The notes: generated from the sequence alone by a model not told the origin. Positions 9,155-14,779 are shown, numbered from the stretch's first letter. The stretch is DNA of 37,941 nucleotides from Methanomicrobiales archaeon (GCA_028678665.1 JAJRDA010000003.1:1-37941); one strand, 5' to 3'. A program made the numbers and translations.

Positions 9155-10240
9155 GTGGCAGTCGCGGCAGAGACCCTCCGGGCACTGGTGCGGGGGAGTG
9201 TCCATGACCTCTGCGTCCCCGGTCATGAACCGGCATTATCCCCACCGGGAAGACCTGCTGAGGGGAAGGCTGCACCGTGCCGCCGCCTCTTCAAGCTGCT
9301 CCTGCAGGGCTCCTGCCGGTTCGACTGCGCCTACTGCACGCTCCGGAACAGCCGCCGGGACCTCTCCCTAACACCGGAGGAGGCTGCAGGCCTCTTTCTC
9401 GGTATGCAGGCCCGAGGCGAGGCCGACGGCTTCTTCCTCTCTTCTGGAGTCGGTGAAGATACGGACAGGGTGATGCACGATCTCGTGGAGACCGGTGAGA
9501 TCCTGCGCCGGCGGGGGTACACCGGCTACCTGCACCTGAAGATCCTGCCCGGGGCTGCACGGGCCGACATCGCGGATGCTGCCAGGGTGGCGGATCGTAT
9601 CAGCATCAACCTGGAGGTGCCATCGGCAGGCCGCATGAGCGAGGTGGCGCAGGTGAAGGATTACCGGAGCGACCTCCTCACCCGCCTCTCCTGGATCCGG
9701 GAGGCCAGGCCCTTCGGCCACACGTCCCAGATGGTGCTGGGAGCTGCGGGGGAGACGGACCGTGAGGTGTACCGGCGCATCGCCTGGCTCTACGGCAGGA
9801 TGCAGGTCTCCCGGGTGTACTACGTCCCCTTCCGGCCACTGGCCGGTACGCCGATGGAATCCTATCCCCCAGCACCGGTCTGGAGGGCGTGGCGGTGGTA
9901 CCAGCTGGATACCCTCGTGCGAACCTACCGGCTCGGCCCTGCCGACCTGGAGACCCTCTTTGACGGCGGGGGGATGCTCACGAACCGTGACCCCAAGGAG
10001 GTGCTGGCTGAGCAGCACGGACCGGTGGACCTCCTCACGGCGCACCGGACCGACCTCCTCCGTGTGCCCGGCATCGGCCCGCGGACGGCGGAGAAGCTCG
10101 TGGCAGCGAGGATCCGTGGCGGGATCCGGGATCTCAGGGACTGTGCGGCCTGCGGCGTGAACCTCCGCCGGGCGGGACCCCACCTGGCCCTGGGTGGGAG
10201 ATCACCGGCCCAGCGGCCCCTCTCGGATTTCGTGAGGTAG
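9155..10240 (+). CDS. Radical SAM protein with C-terminal helix-hairpin-helix (putative DNA modification/repair, TIGR03916-like)
   Basis: CRFDCAYC cluster motif, GFFLSSGV, YLHLKILPGA, DRISINLE and LLRVPGIG HhH; the start is uncertain. Confidence 0.85.
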   Translation: MAVAAETLRALVRGSVHDLCVPGHEPALSPPGRPAEGKAAPCRRLFKLLLQGSCRFDCAYCTLRNSRRDLSLTPEEAAGLFLGMQARGEADGFFLSSGVGEDTDRVMHDLVETGEILRRRGYTGYLHLKILPGAARADIADAARVADRISINLEVPSAGRMSEVAQVKDYRSDLLTRLSWIREARPFGHTSQMVLGAAGETDREVYRRIAWLYGRMQVSRVYYVPFRPLAGTPMESYPPAPVWRAWRWYQLDTLVRTYRLGPADLETLFDGGGMLTNRDPKEVLAEQHGPVDLLTAHRTDLLRVPGIGPRTAEKLVAARIRGGIRDLRDCAACGVNLRRAGPHLALGGRSPAQRPLSDFVR

Positions 10241-10246
10241 ACCGGA

Positions 10247-10660
10247 TCACTTCCGGAAGGTCACGCCATCGAATGACGCCACCAGCCGGTCCCCGGCCTT
10301 TACCATGACCCGGTACAGGGCGGTGTGCTCCGTCTCGCCCAGGAACTCGGCCACCGCTTCCAGGGGACCGGTGGCAGGGACCATGAAGGTGATGTACACT
10401 GACGTGGCCACCTGCATCTCCTCCTGGTTCGCAGCAATGGCGAAAGCCTGGTCCGCGAGGGAAAAGATGGCGCCACCGTGGATCACGCCGTGGGGGTTCT
10501 CCTTCCCCTCCGGGTTCATCGTGACCCGGGCTCCCCGGGGCCAGACTTCGGTGATCTCCATGCCCAGCAGGTGGGCATAGGGGCTCCCGTTGAAGGCCTC
10601 CACCCGCTCCCGCACCCGCCGGGTGAAATCATCCCCTCCTGTGTGGTGCAGGTCGTTCAT
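10247..10660 (-). CDS. PaaI-family (hotdog fold) thioesterase
   Basis: NPHGVIHGGAIFSLADQAFA motif; start MNDLHH lies just after the GT2 stop. Confidence 0.9.
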   Translation of the reverse strand: MNDLHHTGGDDFTRRVRERVEAFNGSPYAHLLGMEITEVWPRGARVTMNPEGKENPHGVIHGGAIFSLADQAFAIAANQEEMQVATSVYITFMVPATGPLEAVAEFLGETEHTALYRVMVKAGDRLVASFDGVTFRK

Positions 10661-10673
10661 CCGCCACCGTCCG

Positions 10674-11372
10674 TCAGCGGTACTCCTGCCGCGAATACTG
10701 GTATTTCGAGGATTCCCCGCCATGGTATACGATGTACAGCCACCGGTAGATGGAGCGGAGCGTCCCGAACTGCTGGTAGCGCCGCATGGAGAATCCCACC
10801 TTCAGCGCGGGATCCAGCACCACCTGTCCCAGATTCTTCATCCGGAGCGCGATCTCCAGGTCGTCCCCGGCGTCGATGGTCCGGTACATGCCGGCCGTGA
10901 GGAAAGCCTCGCGATCAAACGCGGTGTTGCATCCCAGGGTGTAGTAGAGGGTGCGGGTCCAGTACCCGACACGGGAGAATGCATTGGCGAGAGCAAGGGC
11001 CAGGTGGTTCCGGATGCCTCCCTCCCGGGGGTAGACCGTCCCGTACAGCTGAACCGGGCGGTACCGCTCGAAATCAGAGAGTATCCGCTCCAGCCAGTCC
11101 GGCGGGACCACGCAGTCCGCATCGGTGGTGGCCACGATCTTCCCCCGGGCCTGCTGGATGCCATCGTTCCGGGCGCCCCCGACCTTGGCAGAGATCTGGA
11201 TGAACACGAGGTCAGCGAGGGGTGCCGCCAGCTCCCGGGTCCGGTCCCGGGAGTTCCCGTCCACGACGATCAGCTCGTACTGATCCCGCGGGATTGTCTG
11301 GTGGTTCAGGGATTCCAGACAGGCGACGATGTTTGCCTCTTCGTTGTAGGCGGGGATGACGACGGAGATCAT
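10674..11372 (-). CDS. Glycosyltransferase family 2 (GT-A)
   Basis: ISVVIPAYNEE, IVVDGNSRDRT, ARNDG and TDADC (DxD) motifs. Confidence 0.93.
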   Translation of the reverse strand: MISVVIPAYNEEANIVACLESLNHQTIPRDQYELIVVDGNSRDRTRELAAPLADLVFIQISAKVGGARNDGIQQARGKIVATTDADCVVPPDWLERILSDFERYRPVQLYGTVYPREGGIRNHLALALANAFSRVGYWTRTLYYTLGCNTAFDREAFLTAGMYRTIDAGDDLEIALRMKNLGQVVLDPALKVGFSMRRYQQFGTLRSIYRWLYIVYHGGESSKYQYSRQEYR

Positions 11373-12343
11373 GGGACGGACAGCTCCCTGTACAGCTCAG
11401 CGTGGCGCTTCGCGATAAGCCTGATGTCGAAGGGTTCGGTGGCTGCCCGGGCTTTCTCGCCGGAGAGGCGCCACCGGTCCCGGGTCTGGACCAGCTGCTG
11501 CGCATCGTCAAGGCCGTCGAAGAACGCGATGGTGTCGCCGAAGATCTCCCGGAACTCGGGGATCCCCCGGGCGAGAACGGGGAGGCCGCTCGCGAGCGCC
11601 TCCAGGATAACGAGGCCGAAGGTCTCGGCATGGGAGGGCATGAAGAAGAGGTCGGCCCCGCTGTAGGCCTCCATGATGTCCGGGATGAAACCGGTGAAGA
11701 TCACATTCTCGTGGGTCTTTCGCTTCTCCCGCCGGATCCGGAAGTAGTCCTTGGAGAGGGGGCCGTAGGGGAACCCCCCGACCCATACCCAGATCAGGTC
11801 CGGGACCCGTCCGGCCAGGTCCAGGAAGTCGTAGATACCCTTCCGGGGGGTCTGCTGGGCCACCGTGAGCACCACCGTTTCGTCATCGTCCACGCCGAGG
11901 GCAGCCCGGAACGCTCGCCGTTTTGGTTCGGATCGCTGGAAGAAGGCCCGGTCCACGCCGTTCGGGATCATGGTGGTGGGTACGCCGGGGAGCATGGCCC
12001 GCACGTCCCGGTCGCAGGGGTCCGATACGGTGATGATGTGGTCAAAACCCCTGTAGATGGGGGGGTAGAGCCGGTTCACGAGACCGCTGGACGCAATGTT
12101 GCCGACGTTGGTGTGGGGGGTAGAGTGGGCAGTGAGGAGCCGGATCCCCTTCGTGTAGGTGCGGTACAGGAGGGCCAGGGGGCCGAAGGTGTGGAAATGG
12201 GCCACGTCCACGTCCCGCCGGGGAGAGTTCCAGGAGGCCTGGATGTCGCCGCCGGGCAGGTTCCGGTAGACCATCTTCGCGGCGGTGGCACAGCCGATGT
12301 ACTTGAAGACCAGGAAGTCCTCGACCACGAAGTTCACGCGCAT
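11369..12343 (-). CDS. Glycosyltransferase family 4 (GT-B, retaining)
   Basis: IPNGVD, RKG and ETFGLVILEALASGLPV (Ex7E) motifs. Confidence 0.93.
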   Translation of the reverse strand: MRVNFVVEDFLVFKYIGCATAAKMVYRNLPGGDIQASWNSPRRDVDVAHFHTFGPLALLYRTYTKGIRLLTAHSTPHTNVGNIASSGLVNRLYPPIYRGFDHIITVSDPCDRDVRAMLPGVPTTMIPNGVDRAFFQRSEPKRRAFRAALGVDDDETVVLTVAQQTPRKGIYDFLDLAGRVPDLIWVWVGGFPYGPLSKDYFRIRREKRKTHENVIFTGFIPDIMEAYSGADLFFMPSHAETFGLVILEALASGLPVLARGIPEFREIFGDTIAFFDGLDDAQQLVQTRDRWRLSGEKARAATEPFDIRLIAKRHAELYRELSVP

Positions 12344-13653
12344 GGGACCGTCTCCGCAAAGTCCATGGCGGCCCGGATGCAGGCGTCCATGTTCAGGTAC
12401 TCGAACCGGGCGAACCGGCCCAGGAGGTCGATCCCCCGGGCTTCCACGTGGTCCCTCACCACCCGGATATTCCGCAGGTAGTCCAGGTCATAGATCACGT
12501 AGGCGAAGGGCTCCCGTTCCACCCGCGAATACACCACCGCGTCGGGGGAGGGGAGGATCCCCATCCGGCAGAGCCCCGAGACGACATGGCCCACGAGGGC
12601 GGAGTCCGTCATCGATGCGACGGCATCCCCCTCGCGGTACGTGATCTCGGCGAGGAGAGAGGCGTGCCCTTCCGGGGCCACCGCATCGCTGTAGCTGGAC
12701 GGGAACGAGATCCGGTTGAACTGGCCCAGGTCCTTCTCCGGGATGTACATCCAGGAGATCGGTGGGACCGTGCCCCTGATGCCCAGGGAGACCGAGAAGA
12801 GGGAGTTGTATTTCAGGTTCCTGCAGGCGTCCCGGACCGGGACCGGGACGTCCGCCAGGCAGGGGAGGAGCGCCTGGAGCGGGATCGTGGAGATCACCCG
12901 GTCTGCCCGGACGGTCTCCCTGCTGTCAGAGACAAGGTACCCCTTCCCTTCGCGCTCAACGGACCGGACGGGAAAGCCCGTGCGGATAAACTCCTCAACA
13001 GGTGCCGCGATGGCGCAGACCATCGCCTCGATACCGCCCCTGGCCGGGTACGAGAAGACCGCCTGGTGCGTGTACCCCACCGTCGGGATCCCGATGGCGG
13101 CCCGGATCACGTCCTCCACCGGCGGCCGTGGGATCCTCCCCTCCACCCAGTGGGTGGACATCTCCTCCAGGGGATACTTCCAGATCTTCTCATTGTACGG
13201 GACCAGGTAGCAGTCAGCAATCCCCCTGCCGAAGGTCTGATCGATCCATTCCCGGAAATTGGCGGGAGGGTGAACGGTACCCTTCTCATGGGCGATCAGC
13301 GCCTGGATGAAGCCGTGGATGCAGGTATAAAGGTCCTCTTTCGGCAGGGCATACAGGCCGTTTTCGAACGGGTACGGGACCTCCCTTCCCTTATAAAAGA
13401 CGACGGTGTTCCGTTCCCGCACCACCCGGTTCTCTCCCAGCACCTCCTGCATGAAGGCCAGGGCGCCTTTGTCGCGGGAGAAGATGATGTGGGAACCACC
13501 GCGGTCGAAGGTGAAGCCCTGCTCGGTGCGGGACCGGCACAGGCCTCCGATCTGCCCTTCCCGCTCCAGCACCACCACATCGTGCCCCTTCTCATGGAGG
13601 AGCCGGGCTATGGTGACACCGGAGAGACCGCCACCCAGGACTGCCCACTTCAC
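12334..13653 (-). CDS. FAD-dependent oxidoreductase, UDP-galactopyranose mutase/HemY-like
   Basis: GTG start 13653 after AGGAGAGG. Motifs GGGLSG, GGLCRS, FDRGGSHIIFS, YNEKIW, FSYPARGG, RISFPSSYS and GRFARFEYLNMD. Confidence 0.85.
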   Translation of the reverse strand: MKWAVLGGGLSGVTIARLLHEKGHDVVVLEREGQIGGLCRSRTEQGFTFDRGGSHIIFSRDKGALAFMQEVLGENRVVRERNTVVFYKGREVPYPFENGLYALPKEDLYTCIHGFIQALIAHEKGTVHPPANFREWIDQTFGRGIADCYLVPYNEKIWKYPLEEMSTHWVEGRIPRPPVEDVIRAAIGIPTVGYTHQAVFSYPARGGIEAMVCAIAAPVEEFIRTGFPVRSVEREGKGYLVSDSRETVRADRVISTIPLQALLPCLADVPVPVRDACRNLKYNSLFSVSLGIRGTVPPISWMYIPEKDLGQFNRISFPSSYSDAVAPEGHASLLAEITYREGDAVASMTDSALVGHVVSGLCRMGILPSPDAVVYSRVEREPFAYVIYDLDYLRNIRVVRDHVEARGIDLLGRFARFEYLNMDACIRAAMDFAETVPCA

Positions 13654-13751
13654 GCCTCTCCTATAGGACCCGGCTCCATATATGGGTGATGCCGTGCCAC
13701 AGGAGGGCCGGCAGGTATTTATTCCCAAAGAAATTATCAAGTATACTGTAG

Positions 13752-14087
13752 ATGATAACAATACAGGAAATCTTCTCGCATCTCCTCGATGACCTGGGGG
13801 AAGAGATCCTGCGGGCCGAGCTGGAGGGGATCGGGCGCAAGCACCGGGGGATCCGTGCCCGGCAGCGGAAGACCGGGCGGGTGGGCCGCTGCGCACGGGA
13901 GATCCTGGTCTTTTCGGGCGGGACCGGTGAGCCCCCCGCACGCCAGGTCGCCCGGAGGGCGCTGGAACGGAACCTCTCCCAGGCCTCGGTCTATCGGCTG
14001 GTGGGGGAGCTGAACCGCCGGGGGAACCCGGTCCGGGGAGCGGTGGTCCTCCGCGAGATGAAACGGATCCGGGAAGGGATTGTGTAA
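13752..14087 (+). CDS. Hypothetical basic protein (111 aa)
   Basis: Clean ORF with host-like codon usage (CGG, GAG) after an AT-rich promoter-like stretch; no recognisable motif. Confidence 0.65.
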   Translation: MITIQEIFSHLLDDLGEEILRAELEGIGRKHRGIRARQRKTGRVGRCAREILVFSGGTGEPPARQVARRALERNLSQASVYRLVGELNRRGNPVRGAVVLREMKRIREGIV

Positions 14088-14323: not shown

Positions 14324-14779
14324 TCATCTCGGCTGGATGAACCAGCCGGTCAGGGTCTCGTCCAGGATCTTCTTCTCCGTGGGCCGGGTGGCCAGGCTCA
14401 CCGCCACCATGGCGAAGGCCGAGATGACCAGAGCGTAGAAGGAGAAGTGAATCGGGTAGGTGAGGATCTTGAAGAAGGAGAGGCCGCCGACCACGACCGC
14501 CGAGCCAAGGCCGCAGGCCATGGCAGCAAGGGCCCCCTCGCGGGTAGCCCGGCGCCAGTACATGCCGGCGAGAAGCGGCACGGCAAAGGTGGCCAGCATG
14601 ATGCCGATCCCGAGCCAGATCAGGAAGGCCAGGTAATCGGGCGGCTTCACGGCCAGGAAGACGGTGAGGATCCCGGCACCGATGGTGGTGGCCTGGGAGA
14701 CACGGAGGACCGTTTTGTCATCGGCCCCCGGCCGGAGCACGTTCCGGTAGACATCCCACCCGAACATGGAGCCGATGGT
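14324..14779 (-). pseudogene. 5'-truncated sodium:solute symporter (SSS/PutP/PanF family) fragment
   Basis: TIGSMFGWDVYRN...PLLAGMYWRRATREGALAAM are the last TM helices of an SSS protein. The frame is closed by TAA directly upstream of TIGSM, so roughly the first two-thirds are absent. Confidence 0.82.

Follow-up and report, generated by a model that had tools for sequence, protein, structure and literature searches.

Gene arrangement of the cluster

The window analysed here is a stretch of 37,941 nt from a Methanomicrobiales archaeon (GCA_028678665.1, JAJRDA010000003.1:1-37941). Its positions 10,247 to 13,653 hold four genes on the minus strand, three of which, a putative mutase gene and two glycosyltransferase genes, are the best candidate so far for the lipid sugar head groups of this order. 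The first gene (13653->12334) encodes a flavoprotein of 439 aa, a homologue of UDP-galactopyranose mutase (UGM), and starts with GTG preceded by GGAGAGG. It is followed by the genes of a retaining family 4 glycosyltransferase (GT4) of the GT-B class (11369..12343, 324 aa), of a small inverting family 2 glycosyltransferase (GT2) of the GT-A class (10674..11372, 232 aa) and of a PaaI-like hotdog-fold thioesterase (10247..10660, 137 aa), the last being the final gene of this transcription unit.

A preliminary description of the locus, made from the DNA alone, had claimed four co-oriented genes with tight junctions, and this is confirmed. The ATG of the GT4 gene (12343-12341) lies within the flavoprotein gene, whose TGA is at 12336-12334, giving an overlap of 10 nt (12334-12343); GT4 and GT2 genes share an ATGA (11372-11369); and 13 nt (10661-10673), with GGTGG inside, separate the GT2 from the hotdog gene, for which a longer frame from the alternative start at 10723 is likewise open. 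With a third-position GC of 0.79-0.89, each of the four frames looks like coding sequence of this genome, whose GC is 63%. Pfam assigns Amino_oxidase (120 bits) and NAD_binding_8 (51.9 bits) to the flavoprotein, and 4HBT to the hotdog protein. It agrees with the GT4 and GT2 classes proposed earlier for the two transferases: Glycos_transf_1/Glyco_transf_4 for the first (Glycos_transf_1 84.2 bits, cut-off 26.4) and Glycos_transf_2 for the second (111.9 bits, cut-off 23.3).

The flavoprotein is very probably a UDP-galactopyranose mutase

The flavoprotein had been read as a eukaryote-type UGM, neither HemY nor of the bacterial Glf type, and sequence, profile and fold comparisons all support this. 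The five UGM motifs quoted in its favour are present, namely FDRGGSHIIFS (residues 49-59), YNEKIWKYPLEEMSTHWVEGR (153-173), FSYPARGG (200-207), RISFPSSYS (314-322) and GRFARFEYLNMD (412-423). Key residues are the FAD site G7-G12, the His loop G52-G53-S54-H55, and R173, W301, Y303, R314, E336, Y385, R413, Y419 and N421. In a sequence search of the PDB the UGMs of T. cruzi (TcUGM; 4dsg, E 3.9e-45) and A. fumigatus (AfUGM; 3ute, E 1.9e-37) were matched over nearly the full length, whereas protoporphyrinogen oxidase (PPO; 2ivd, E 6.7e-9) was matched over residues 2-67 only and bacterial Glf in the N-terminal part (E about 1e-6; 1e-5 to 1e-11 over sequence and profile searches). With a profile built from 26 archaeal homologues the UGM E-values improved to 6e-53 and 7e-51, and positions 4-419 aligned to AfUGM. 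An AlphaFold (AF2) model on that alignment reached a predicted local distance difference test score (pLDDT) of 93.2 and a predicted TM-score (pTM) of 0.90. Foldseek placed Tc/AfUGM chains at ranks 1-34 (query TM-score, TMq, 0.86-0.89; 25-29% identity) and PPO from rank 35 on (TMq 0.74-0.81). Among the NCBIfam models the nearest are the unnamed PRK07208 models, at 188 bits and below their cut-off. The bacterial Glf model TIGR00031 gave 62.3 bits against a cut-off of 303.75 and covered residues 2-196 only, and HemY TIGR00562 gave 44.9 bits against 97.85 over residues 3-80.

For the active site, 20 residues of AfUGM (Table 2 of PMC3322874) were mapped via HMMER alignments, and the chain numbering of AfUGM and TcUGM was checked against the residues named in PMC7662398 and PMC4192007. 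The substrate-binding Arg, Trp and Tyr residues, whose loss would have spoken against a UGM, are all in place. Fifteen of the 20 positions are identical (H55, F58, R81, Y153, N154, W158, R173, W301, Y303, R314, E336, Y385, R413, Y419 and N421 of the flavoprotein), three are conservative changes (F158Y, M159L and N207Q in AfUGM numbering) and two differ (P206H, Q458M). Except for L150, which is L or M, the mapped positions are invariant in 26/26 archaeal sequences. At all five positions that discriminate eukaryotic from bacterial UGMs (F66, R91, N163, W315 and Y317 of AfUGM) the eukaryotic residue is kept and the bacterial Glf residue is not followed. The archaeal protein also retains equivalents of three AfUGM residues of the NAD(P)H site, R91, S93 (here Thr) and Y104. 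AfUGM R182, R327, W315, Y317 and N457 contact galactose or its phosphate (PMC3322874).

Eukaryotic UGMs (AfUGM UgmA, 3ute/3uka; TcUGM, 4dsg/4dsh) share the three-domain fold at the 25-29% identity given above. They have the loop GGH where the archaeal protein has GGSH, and the latter is compact and operon-encoded, with a predicted activity. The eukaryotic insertions are missing (439 aa compared with about 480-510 aa), and 3ute has about 27 residues more than the archaeal protein in the region after R327 of their profile alignment. Bacterial Glf (E. coli, K. pneumoniae, M. tuberculosis, D. radiodurans) would be expected to catalyse the same reaction; common to both are the His, the two Arg, the Tyr419/Tyr453 equivalents and GR(F/L)..Y..NMD, and the C-terminal Y-x-N-M of the archaeal protein has the bacterial spacing (cf. 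Y370/N372/M373 of the D. radiodurans enzyme; PMC3322874). Because of the GGSH loop, the lack of insertions and this spacing we call the protein a compact eukaryote-type UGM homologue. By sequence and model it is very probably a galactofuranose (Galf)-forming enzyme.

As had been expected, database names point elsewhere: most named homologues go under "protoporphyrinogen oxidase" or "FAD-dependent oxidoreductase". The Methanospirillum hungatei JF-1 protein ABD39898.1 is already "UDP-galactopyranose mutase" in one record and "FAD-dependent oxidoreductase" in another, and database annotation likewise calls one Methanoculleus protein a UGM. The protein atlas holds generic names only, except for one look-alike cluster named "O-antigen synthesis protein WbyH family". 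Correcting the annotation would concern thousands of "protoporphyrinogen oxidase" records in organisms that make no haem.

The two glycosyltransferases and the thioesterase

In an alignment of 18 orthologues of the small GT2, T82-T83-D84-A85-D86 is invariant (A85 nearly so) and includes the DxD motif D84-A-D86. The pair D170-D171, either of which is a candidate base, and FSMRRY (194-199) are invariant as well, and the protein ends in an aromatic amphipathic helix. The folds nearest to its AF2 model (pLDDT 81.7) are those of the soluble hydroxyl-glycosylating GT2s AvpGT, WrtF, RmlT, TarS/TarP, SpsA and K4CP. The models of enzymes acting on polyprenyl phosphates were matched in the N-terminal half only and far below their cut-offs: AglJ TIGR04182 with 35.3 bits (cut-off 325), the dolichyl-phosphate hexose model NF041391 with 30.2 bits (375) and ArnC with 28.3 bits (529). 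In sequence and predicted fold the protein resembles hydroxyl-acceptor GT2s and not polyprenyl-phosphate ones.

We propose that this GT2 is a beta-galactofuranosyltransferase. Comparable pairs of UGM and GT2 galactofuranosyltransferase genes are known, as in mycobacteria, where the mutase gene glf lies beside glfT1/glfT2 and the inverting GT2 uses UDP-Galf for beta-Galf linkages. The GlfT enzymes are larger than the 232 aa found here and build up galactan from a primer that is bound to a polyprenyl carrier, and the family-model and fold searches gave no specific GlfT match.

The GT4 carries the motif E240-x7-E248, in which E240 is nearly and E248 fully invariant among the orthologues. Its best NCBIfam match is IagA/BgsA (NF053513) with 135.2 bits over residues 1-320 of 324, short of the cut-off of 460 bits; the second is Dgs with 94.8 bits. 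Both families were matched by 18/18 GT4 orthologues and gave the two best E-values of the family summary (1.8e-50 and 3.1e-40). An earlier suggestion that the GT4 adds alpha-glucose (Glc) thus gains partial support, since the nearest families are 1->2 glycolipid alpha-glucosyltransferases, which would fit the alpha-Glc-(1->2)-beta-Galf head group reported for M. hungatei. According to PMC3083329, BgsA, IagA and LafA are (1->2) glucosyltransferases from which monoglucosyl-diacylglycerol receives its second glucose, and diacylglycerol is not taken by BgsA. These Firmicutes GT4s (IagA/BgsA/LafA and Dgs) have about 325-333 aa, and residues 1-320 of the GT4 align with 1-330 of 333. IagA/BgsA is the nearest curated family, but the score keeps the protein outside it. 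A further difference would be the acceptor, Glc-diacylglycerol in IagA/BgsA and a Galf-bearing ether lipid here. We propose, by analogy, that the GT4 is the transferase of the second sugar (alpha-glucosyl).

The hotdog protein reaches 52.6 bits on TIGR00369 (cut-off 36.6) and 78.1 bits on the PaaI equivalog TIGR02286, whose cut-off is 118.9. Its gene follows the GT2 gene in 57 of the 80 best related loci, plus four with an insert. Of ten genomes sampled across six families only five have the thioesterase gene behind the cluster, and it is missing from the M. hungatei cluster. The thioesterase as an obligatory member was therefore rejected, and the place in the pathway that the preliminary description had offered it probably does not hold; it is probably a passenger or facultative neighbour.

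Mutase and GT2 form a conserved module of Methanomicrobiales

Locus architectures were counted in the 80 best related loci, all of which belong to Methanomicrobiales or Methanoperedens (Methanoregula, Methanosphaerula, Methanolinea and metagenome-assembled genomes). The order mutase-GT2-thioesterase was found in 49 of them, plus four with an insert before the thioesterase; mutase-GT4-GT2-thioesterase in eight; mutase-GT4-GT2 in seven; mutase-GT4 in seven; mutase-GT2 at a contig end in three; and the mutase alone at a contig end in two. A GT4 and/or GT2 orthologue thus lies directly 3' of the mutase gene in 78/80 loci, and the arrangement is not due to chance. Mutase and GT2 genes are neighbours, directly or via the GT4 gene, in 10/10 genomes drawn from all six families.

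Within the order the mutase was found in 286 of 301 genomes (202/208 of high quality) and 42 of 43 genera, and the GT2 orthologue in 99 of 101 genomes and all 27 genera. Both occur in 98 of the 101 genomes checked for each; the exceptions have the mutase only (G069), the GT2 only (G099) or neither (G105). Mutase and GT2 are a core, vertically kept module of Methanomicrobiales. The GT4 orthologue is patchier, being present in 70/101 genomes and 17/27 genera and almost missing from family f3 (3/21) and missing from the sampled genomes of genus g15 (Methanoregula; 0/8), which fits an optional second step. Methanoculleus and Methanospirillum have it. Where present, it adjoins the mutase gene, mostly between mutase and GT2.

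Beyond the order, 18 of 128 genomes of the same phylum have a mutase homologue of 38-50% identity. M. acetivorans, included as a control, showed no match to the related family model. A linkage of mutase and GT2 there was considered and rejected. In family f8 a different GT2 (307-335 aa) stands beside a 38%-identical mutase homologue in 3/3 scanned loci (L111, 3931-7234; L112, 3122-6205; L113, 4077-6261), and L111 and L112 also have a gene for an LPG_synthase_TM protein (MprF flippase-like) near it.

Methanoperedens carries mutase-GT4-GT2, and in a quick tree of the mutases, rooted at the midpoint and made with no clade test, it nests inside the Methanomicrobiales clade with 95-96 in the Shimodaira-Hasegawa-like approximate likelihood ratio test (SH-aLRT). 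Methanoperedens seems to have received the module by lateral transfer. In the same tree P0053, labelled Candidatus Methanomethylophilaceae archaeon, nests with Methanoculleus (SH-aLRT 100), and its contig is probably mis-binned.

Three low-GC genomes of family f3, whose nearest named relatives are Methanoplanus and Methanomicrobium, have a gene for a 470-aa protein of the major facilitator superfamily (MFS) between mutase and GT2 (L103, 3451-4872; L104, 3042-4457; L105, 2948-4354). The MFS family has many paralogues, and orthologues in this position were confined to G003, G039, G033, G051 and G021. In Firmicutes glycolipid synthases are paired with MFS flippases, of which the f3 arrangement is reminiscent; this is a hint only that the transporter could be a glycolipid flippase.

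The cluster is present in Methanospirillum hungatei

The preliminary description had named as damaging to its case the absence of the operon from a producer of Galf lipids. M. hungatei lipids reportedly carry alpha-Glcp-(1->2)-beta-Galf and beta-Galf-(1->6)-beta-Galf head groups, and the cluster is present and translationally coupled in strain JF-1. Four complete genomes of genus g36 have mutase, GT4 and GT2 genes with 4-nt overlaps and without the thioesterase gene; in one of these loci (L132) the three proteins are identical letter for letter to ABD39898.1, ABD39897.1 and ABD39896.1 of JF-1. In the JF-1 genome the UGM gene is the only match to the Glf model and no GT75 mutase was found. The same holds for the genome of the window and four others, while in one g36 genome a canonical Glf occurs as well.

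PMC6581649, citing Koga 1998, names galactose and glucose as lipid head groups of Methanomicrobiales; it also places dihexosyl-archaeol in the top three of the intact lipids of Methanoperedens by abundance. Table 2 of PMC11346949 gives a disaccharide on every intact glycerol dialkyl glycerol tetraether (GDGT) lipid of four Methanospirillum strains. JF-1 is described as having neither b- nor c-type haems in PMC4704411, where the cluster genes are not mentioned.

In four RNA-library runs from two studies the M. hungatei cluster is covered from end to end by single contigs. A claim of expression was dropped, as contigs can show neither transcription nor a common transcript. The locus L076 was also dropped as an example of a Galf-lipid producer and replaced by genus g36 and M. 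hungatei JF-1. L076 and L129 come from a genome (G301) titled "uncultured Methanospirillum sp."; their GC is 65% and 72%, compared with about 45% in cultured Methanospirillum, and in the quick tree the L076 mutase falls beside those of Methanoregulaceae/Methanosphaerula, which makes the taxonomic label look doubtful.

A proposed pathway for galactofuranose lipids

We propose that the mutase-GT4-GT2 module makes the Galf-based glycolipid head groups of Methanomicrobiales membranes, and put the probability of this reading at roughly 60%. In the first step, which is strongly supported by sequence and model, the flavoprotein with reduced FAD would interconvert UDP-galactopyranose and UDP-galactofuranose via a flavin-N5 adduct; the catalytic His, both Arg, the phosphate-binding Tyr and the NAD(P)H residues of fungal UGM are kept. 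The next two steps are drawn from synteny, phyletic pattern, family resemblance and lipid chemistry. The small inverting GT2, as a peripheral membrane enzyme, would transfer Galf from UDP-alpha-Galf to a free glycerol hydroxyl of archaeol or caldarchaeol, the likely lipid acceptors, yielding a beta-Galf-lipid. The retaining GT4 would then add an alpha-hexose, probably Glc in 1->2 linkage, to the monoglycosyl lipid, as BgsA/IagA/LafA do. This order of the transferases is preferred because mutase and GT2 are universal and the GT4 is not, and because the relatives of the GT4 act on monoglycosyl lipids. Lineages without a GT4 would end at Galf or form Galf-Galf. Of the glycolipid operon first envisaged, the identity of the mutase, the transferase classes and now the JF-1 cluster speak for three members, and the thioesterase probably drops out.

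A bolder version, in which mutase, GT2 and the facultative GT4 are the complete, order-defining Galf glycolipid pathway and the first gene set for a furanose lipid head group in Archaea, is tentative and in our estimate somewhat short of even odds. A literature search, which took in few subscription journals and had supplements outside its scope, found neither a gene assignment for archaeal Galf lipids nor a study of an archaeal eukaryote-type UGM.

Several observations weigh against the proposed pathway. The roles of mutase, GT2 and GT4 are all predictions from sequence and models. The mutase has an invariant His, but its loop G52-G53-S54-H55 is one residue longer than GGH. Bacterial UGMs have Pro where TcUGM has Gly before the loop His. 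Replacement of this Gly in TcUGM (G61A/P) costs about 90% of the activity (PMC4192007). On the sugar side the flap residues N207 and P206 are changed to Gln and His, so that the sugar could differ. The GT2 has no specific match to any characterised lipid glycosyltransferase, its best NCBIfam hits being TIGR04283/MftF with 80-84 bits, below the cut-off. GalE-like genes are present in the genome of the window, none of them at the cut-off (best 163.9 against 262.3 bits). Among distant loci the GT2 orthologue adjoins the mutase in only 1/10, the contexts being different otherwise. A genome of the genus Methanospirillum (G281) has a second mutase copy in an island of 36% GC (L134, 4079-10301), where its neighbours encode two GT2s and a polysaccharide transporter of the Wzx-like kind; the family therefore serves other glycans too, and the island suggests a strain-specific Galf-containing surface glycan. 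In three genomes, finally, the GT2 gene lies directly behind an AglJ orthologue (TIGR04182, 426 bits, cut-off 325), at 4908-6538 of L129 (G301), 4444-6150 of L128 (G302) and 4041-5747 of L127 (G091). In these only the GT4 gene stands behind the mutase gene, from which the GT2 gene is detached.

AglJ is the dolichyl-phosphate hexose enzyme of N-glycosylation, and the AglJ-GT2 adjacency is the strongest lead for a dolichol or N-glycan role, which qualifies the earlier assignment of both transferases to a lipid pathway. In such a role GT2 and GT4 would act on the dolichol carrier, adding Galf and an alpha-hexose to the dolichyl-phosphate sugar that AglJ makes, and the proteins N-glycosylated in this way would be those of S-layer, sheath or archaellum; in a variant the GT2 would make a lipid-carried Galf donor. 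The flippase-like proteins near mutase homologues, MprF-type behind a different GT2 in two of the three scanned f8 loci and Wzx-like beside the second Methanospirillum copy, would also suit it. However, the three genomes with AglJ-GT2 all belong to the group with mutase-GT4 only and may reflect a single rearrangement in one lineage, and AglJ was found in the flanks of none of about 100 mutase-centred loci. In the genome of the window AglB and the AglJ orthologue sit on contigs other than that of the cluster. The low, N-terminal scores of the GT2 on the AglJ (35 bits) and ArnC/dolichyl-phosphate hexose models (28-30 bits), its hydroxyl-acceptor fold neighbours and the glycolipid synthases nearest to the GT4 argue for a lipid acceptor instead, and surface-glycan genes are not usually conserved so widely, in single copy and amid housekeeping DNA. 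We consider the dolichol role unlikely, though it is the strongest of the alternatives.

Less probable still is that the flavoprotein is a mutase for another nucleotide sugar (UDP-GalNAc, UDP-arabinose or a CDP- or GDP-sugar) and that the product is not a Galf lipid. The altered flap (P206 to H, N207 to Q), the change of Q458 to M and the extra His-loop residue would be compatible with this, the mutase activity is predicted from sequence, and one look-alike cluster in the protein atlas bears the name of WbyH, which we take to be a proposed paratose ring mutase. Against it stand the 15/20 identical AfUGM residues, including the contacts to galactose and phosphate (R182, R327, W315, Y317, N457), the record of galactose as a lipid sugar of the order, and JF-1, which has no other candidate for the Galf that its lipids are reported to contain. 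Hardly credible is the reading in which the database label is right, the protein being an oxidase of protoporphyrinogen/coproporphyrinogen or of amines that has the transferases as incidental neighbours. Amino_oxidase is its Pfam family, most source names agree with the label and PPO structures are the next fold class. Against this, the PPO matches are confined to the FAD-binding N-terminus (residues 2-67; 3-80 for TIGR00562), while those to UGM run full length with E-values lower by 30-40 orders of magnitude. The residues of the UGM active site are invariant, b- and c-type haems are missing from JF-1 (PMC4704411), and the glycosyltransferase synteny holds across the order.

To our knowledge the enzymes that add sugars to archaeal membrane lipids largely lack gene assignments. 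For the proposed Galf-lipid pathway the present analysis adds the order-wide core status of mutase and GT2, an optional GT4 of glycolipid type and the exact cluster in M. hungatei, an organism reported to have Galf lipids. The three-gene hypothesis is directly testable in organisms with a known lipid phenotype, and the occurrence of the GT4 in some lineages and not others provides a built-in natural experiment: if the pathway is right, Glc-Galf lipids would be expected in lineages with the GT4 and not in those without it. The small GT2 would then be an archaeol/caldarchaeol beta-galactofuranosyltransferase, and the compact archaeal mutase, possibly NAD(P)H-reducible, would represent the prokaryotic stock of the fungal and trypanosomatid enzyme. 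Eukaryote-type UGM, a drug target studied in fungi and trypanosomes, has close, shorter prokaryotic relatives. For geochemistry the genes could serve as a marker for producers of hexose-bearing archaeol and GDGT in lipid-biomarker studies.

Promoter region and neighbouring genes

Neither AglB nor flippase nor GT-C genes were found within the window, whose remaining genes are housekeeping ones (transhydrogenase, catalase, acetolactate synthase, isopropylmalate synthase, PurH, DnaK/DnaJ). The 98 bp 5' of the mutase gene (13654..13751) form an AT-richer divergent intergenic spacer with the TATA-like stretches AATAAATA and CATATATGG, read by eye from the sequence, and are presumed to be the promoter region of the mutase gene. 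On the other side of the spacer a divergent open reading frame (ORF) of 111 aa (13752-14087, plus strand) bounds the unit upstream. It matches neither Pfam nor NCBIfam models, its position is kept in relatives (identity 84% in L002, 55% in L124, 43% in L030 and 42% in L068), and it is possibly a small regulator.

Downstream the cluster is bounded by a convergent gene with radical-SAM and helix-hairpin-helix domains (9155-10240, plus strand; TIGR03916 175 bits, below the cut-off), and a radical-SAM/helix-hairpin-helix gene also adjoins the GT2 in families f2 and f6. Further upstream, a 147-aa ORF on the minus strand (14324-14767) matches only the final 87 positions of the sodium:solute symporter family (SSF) and may be a broken or truncated symporter gene; in L106 a complete SSF gene of 527 aa lies upstream of the mutase.

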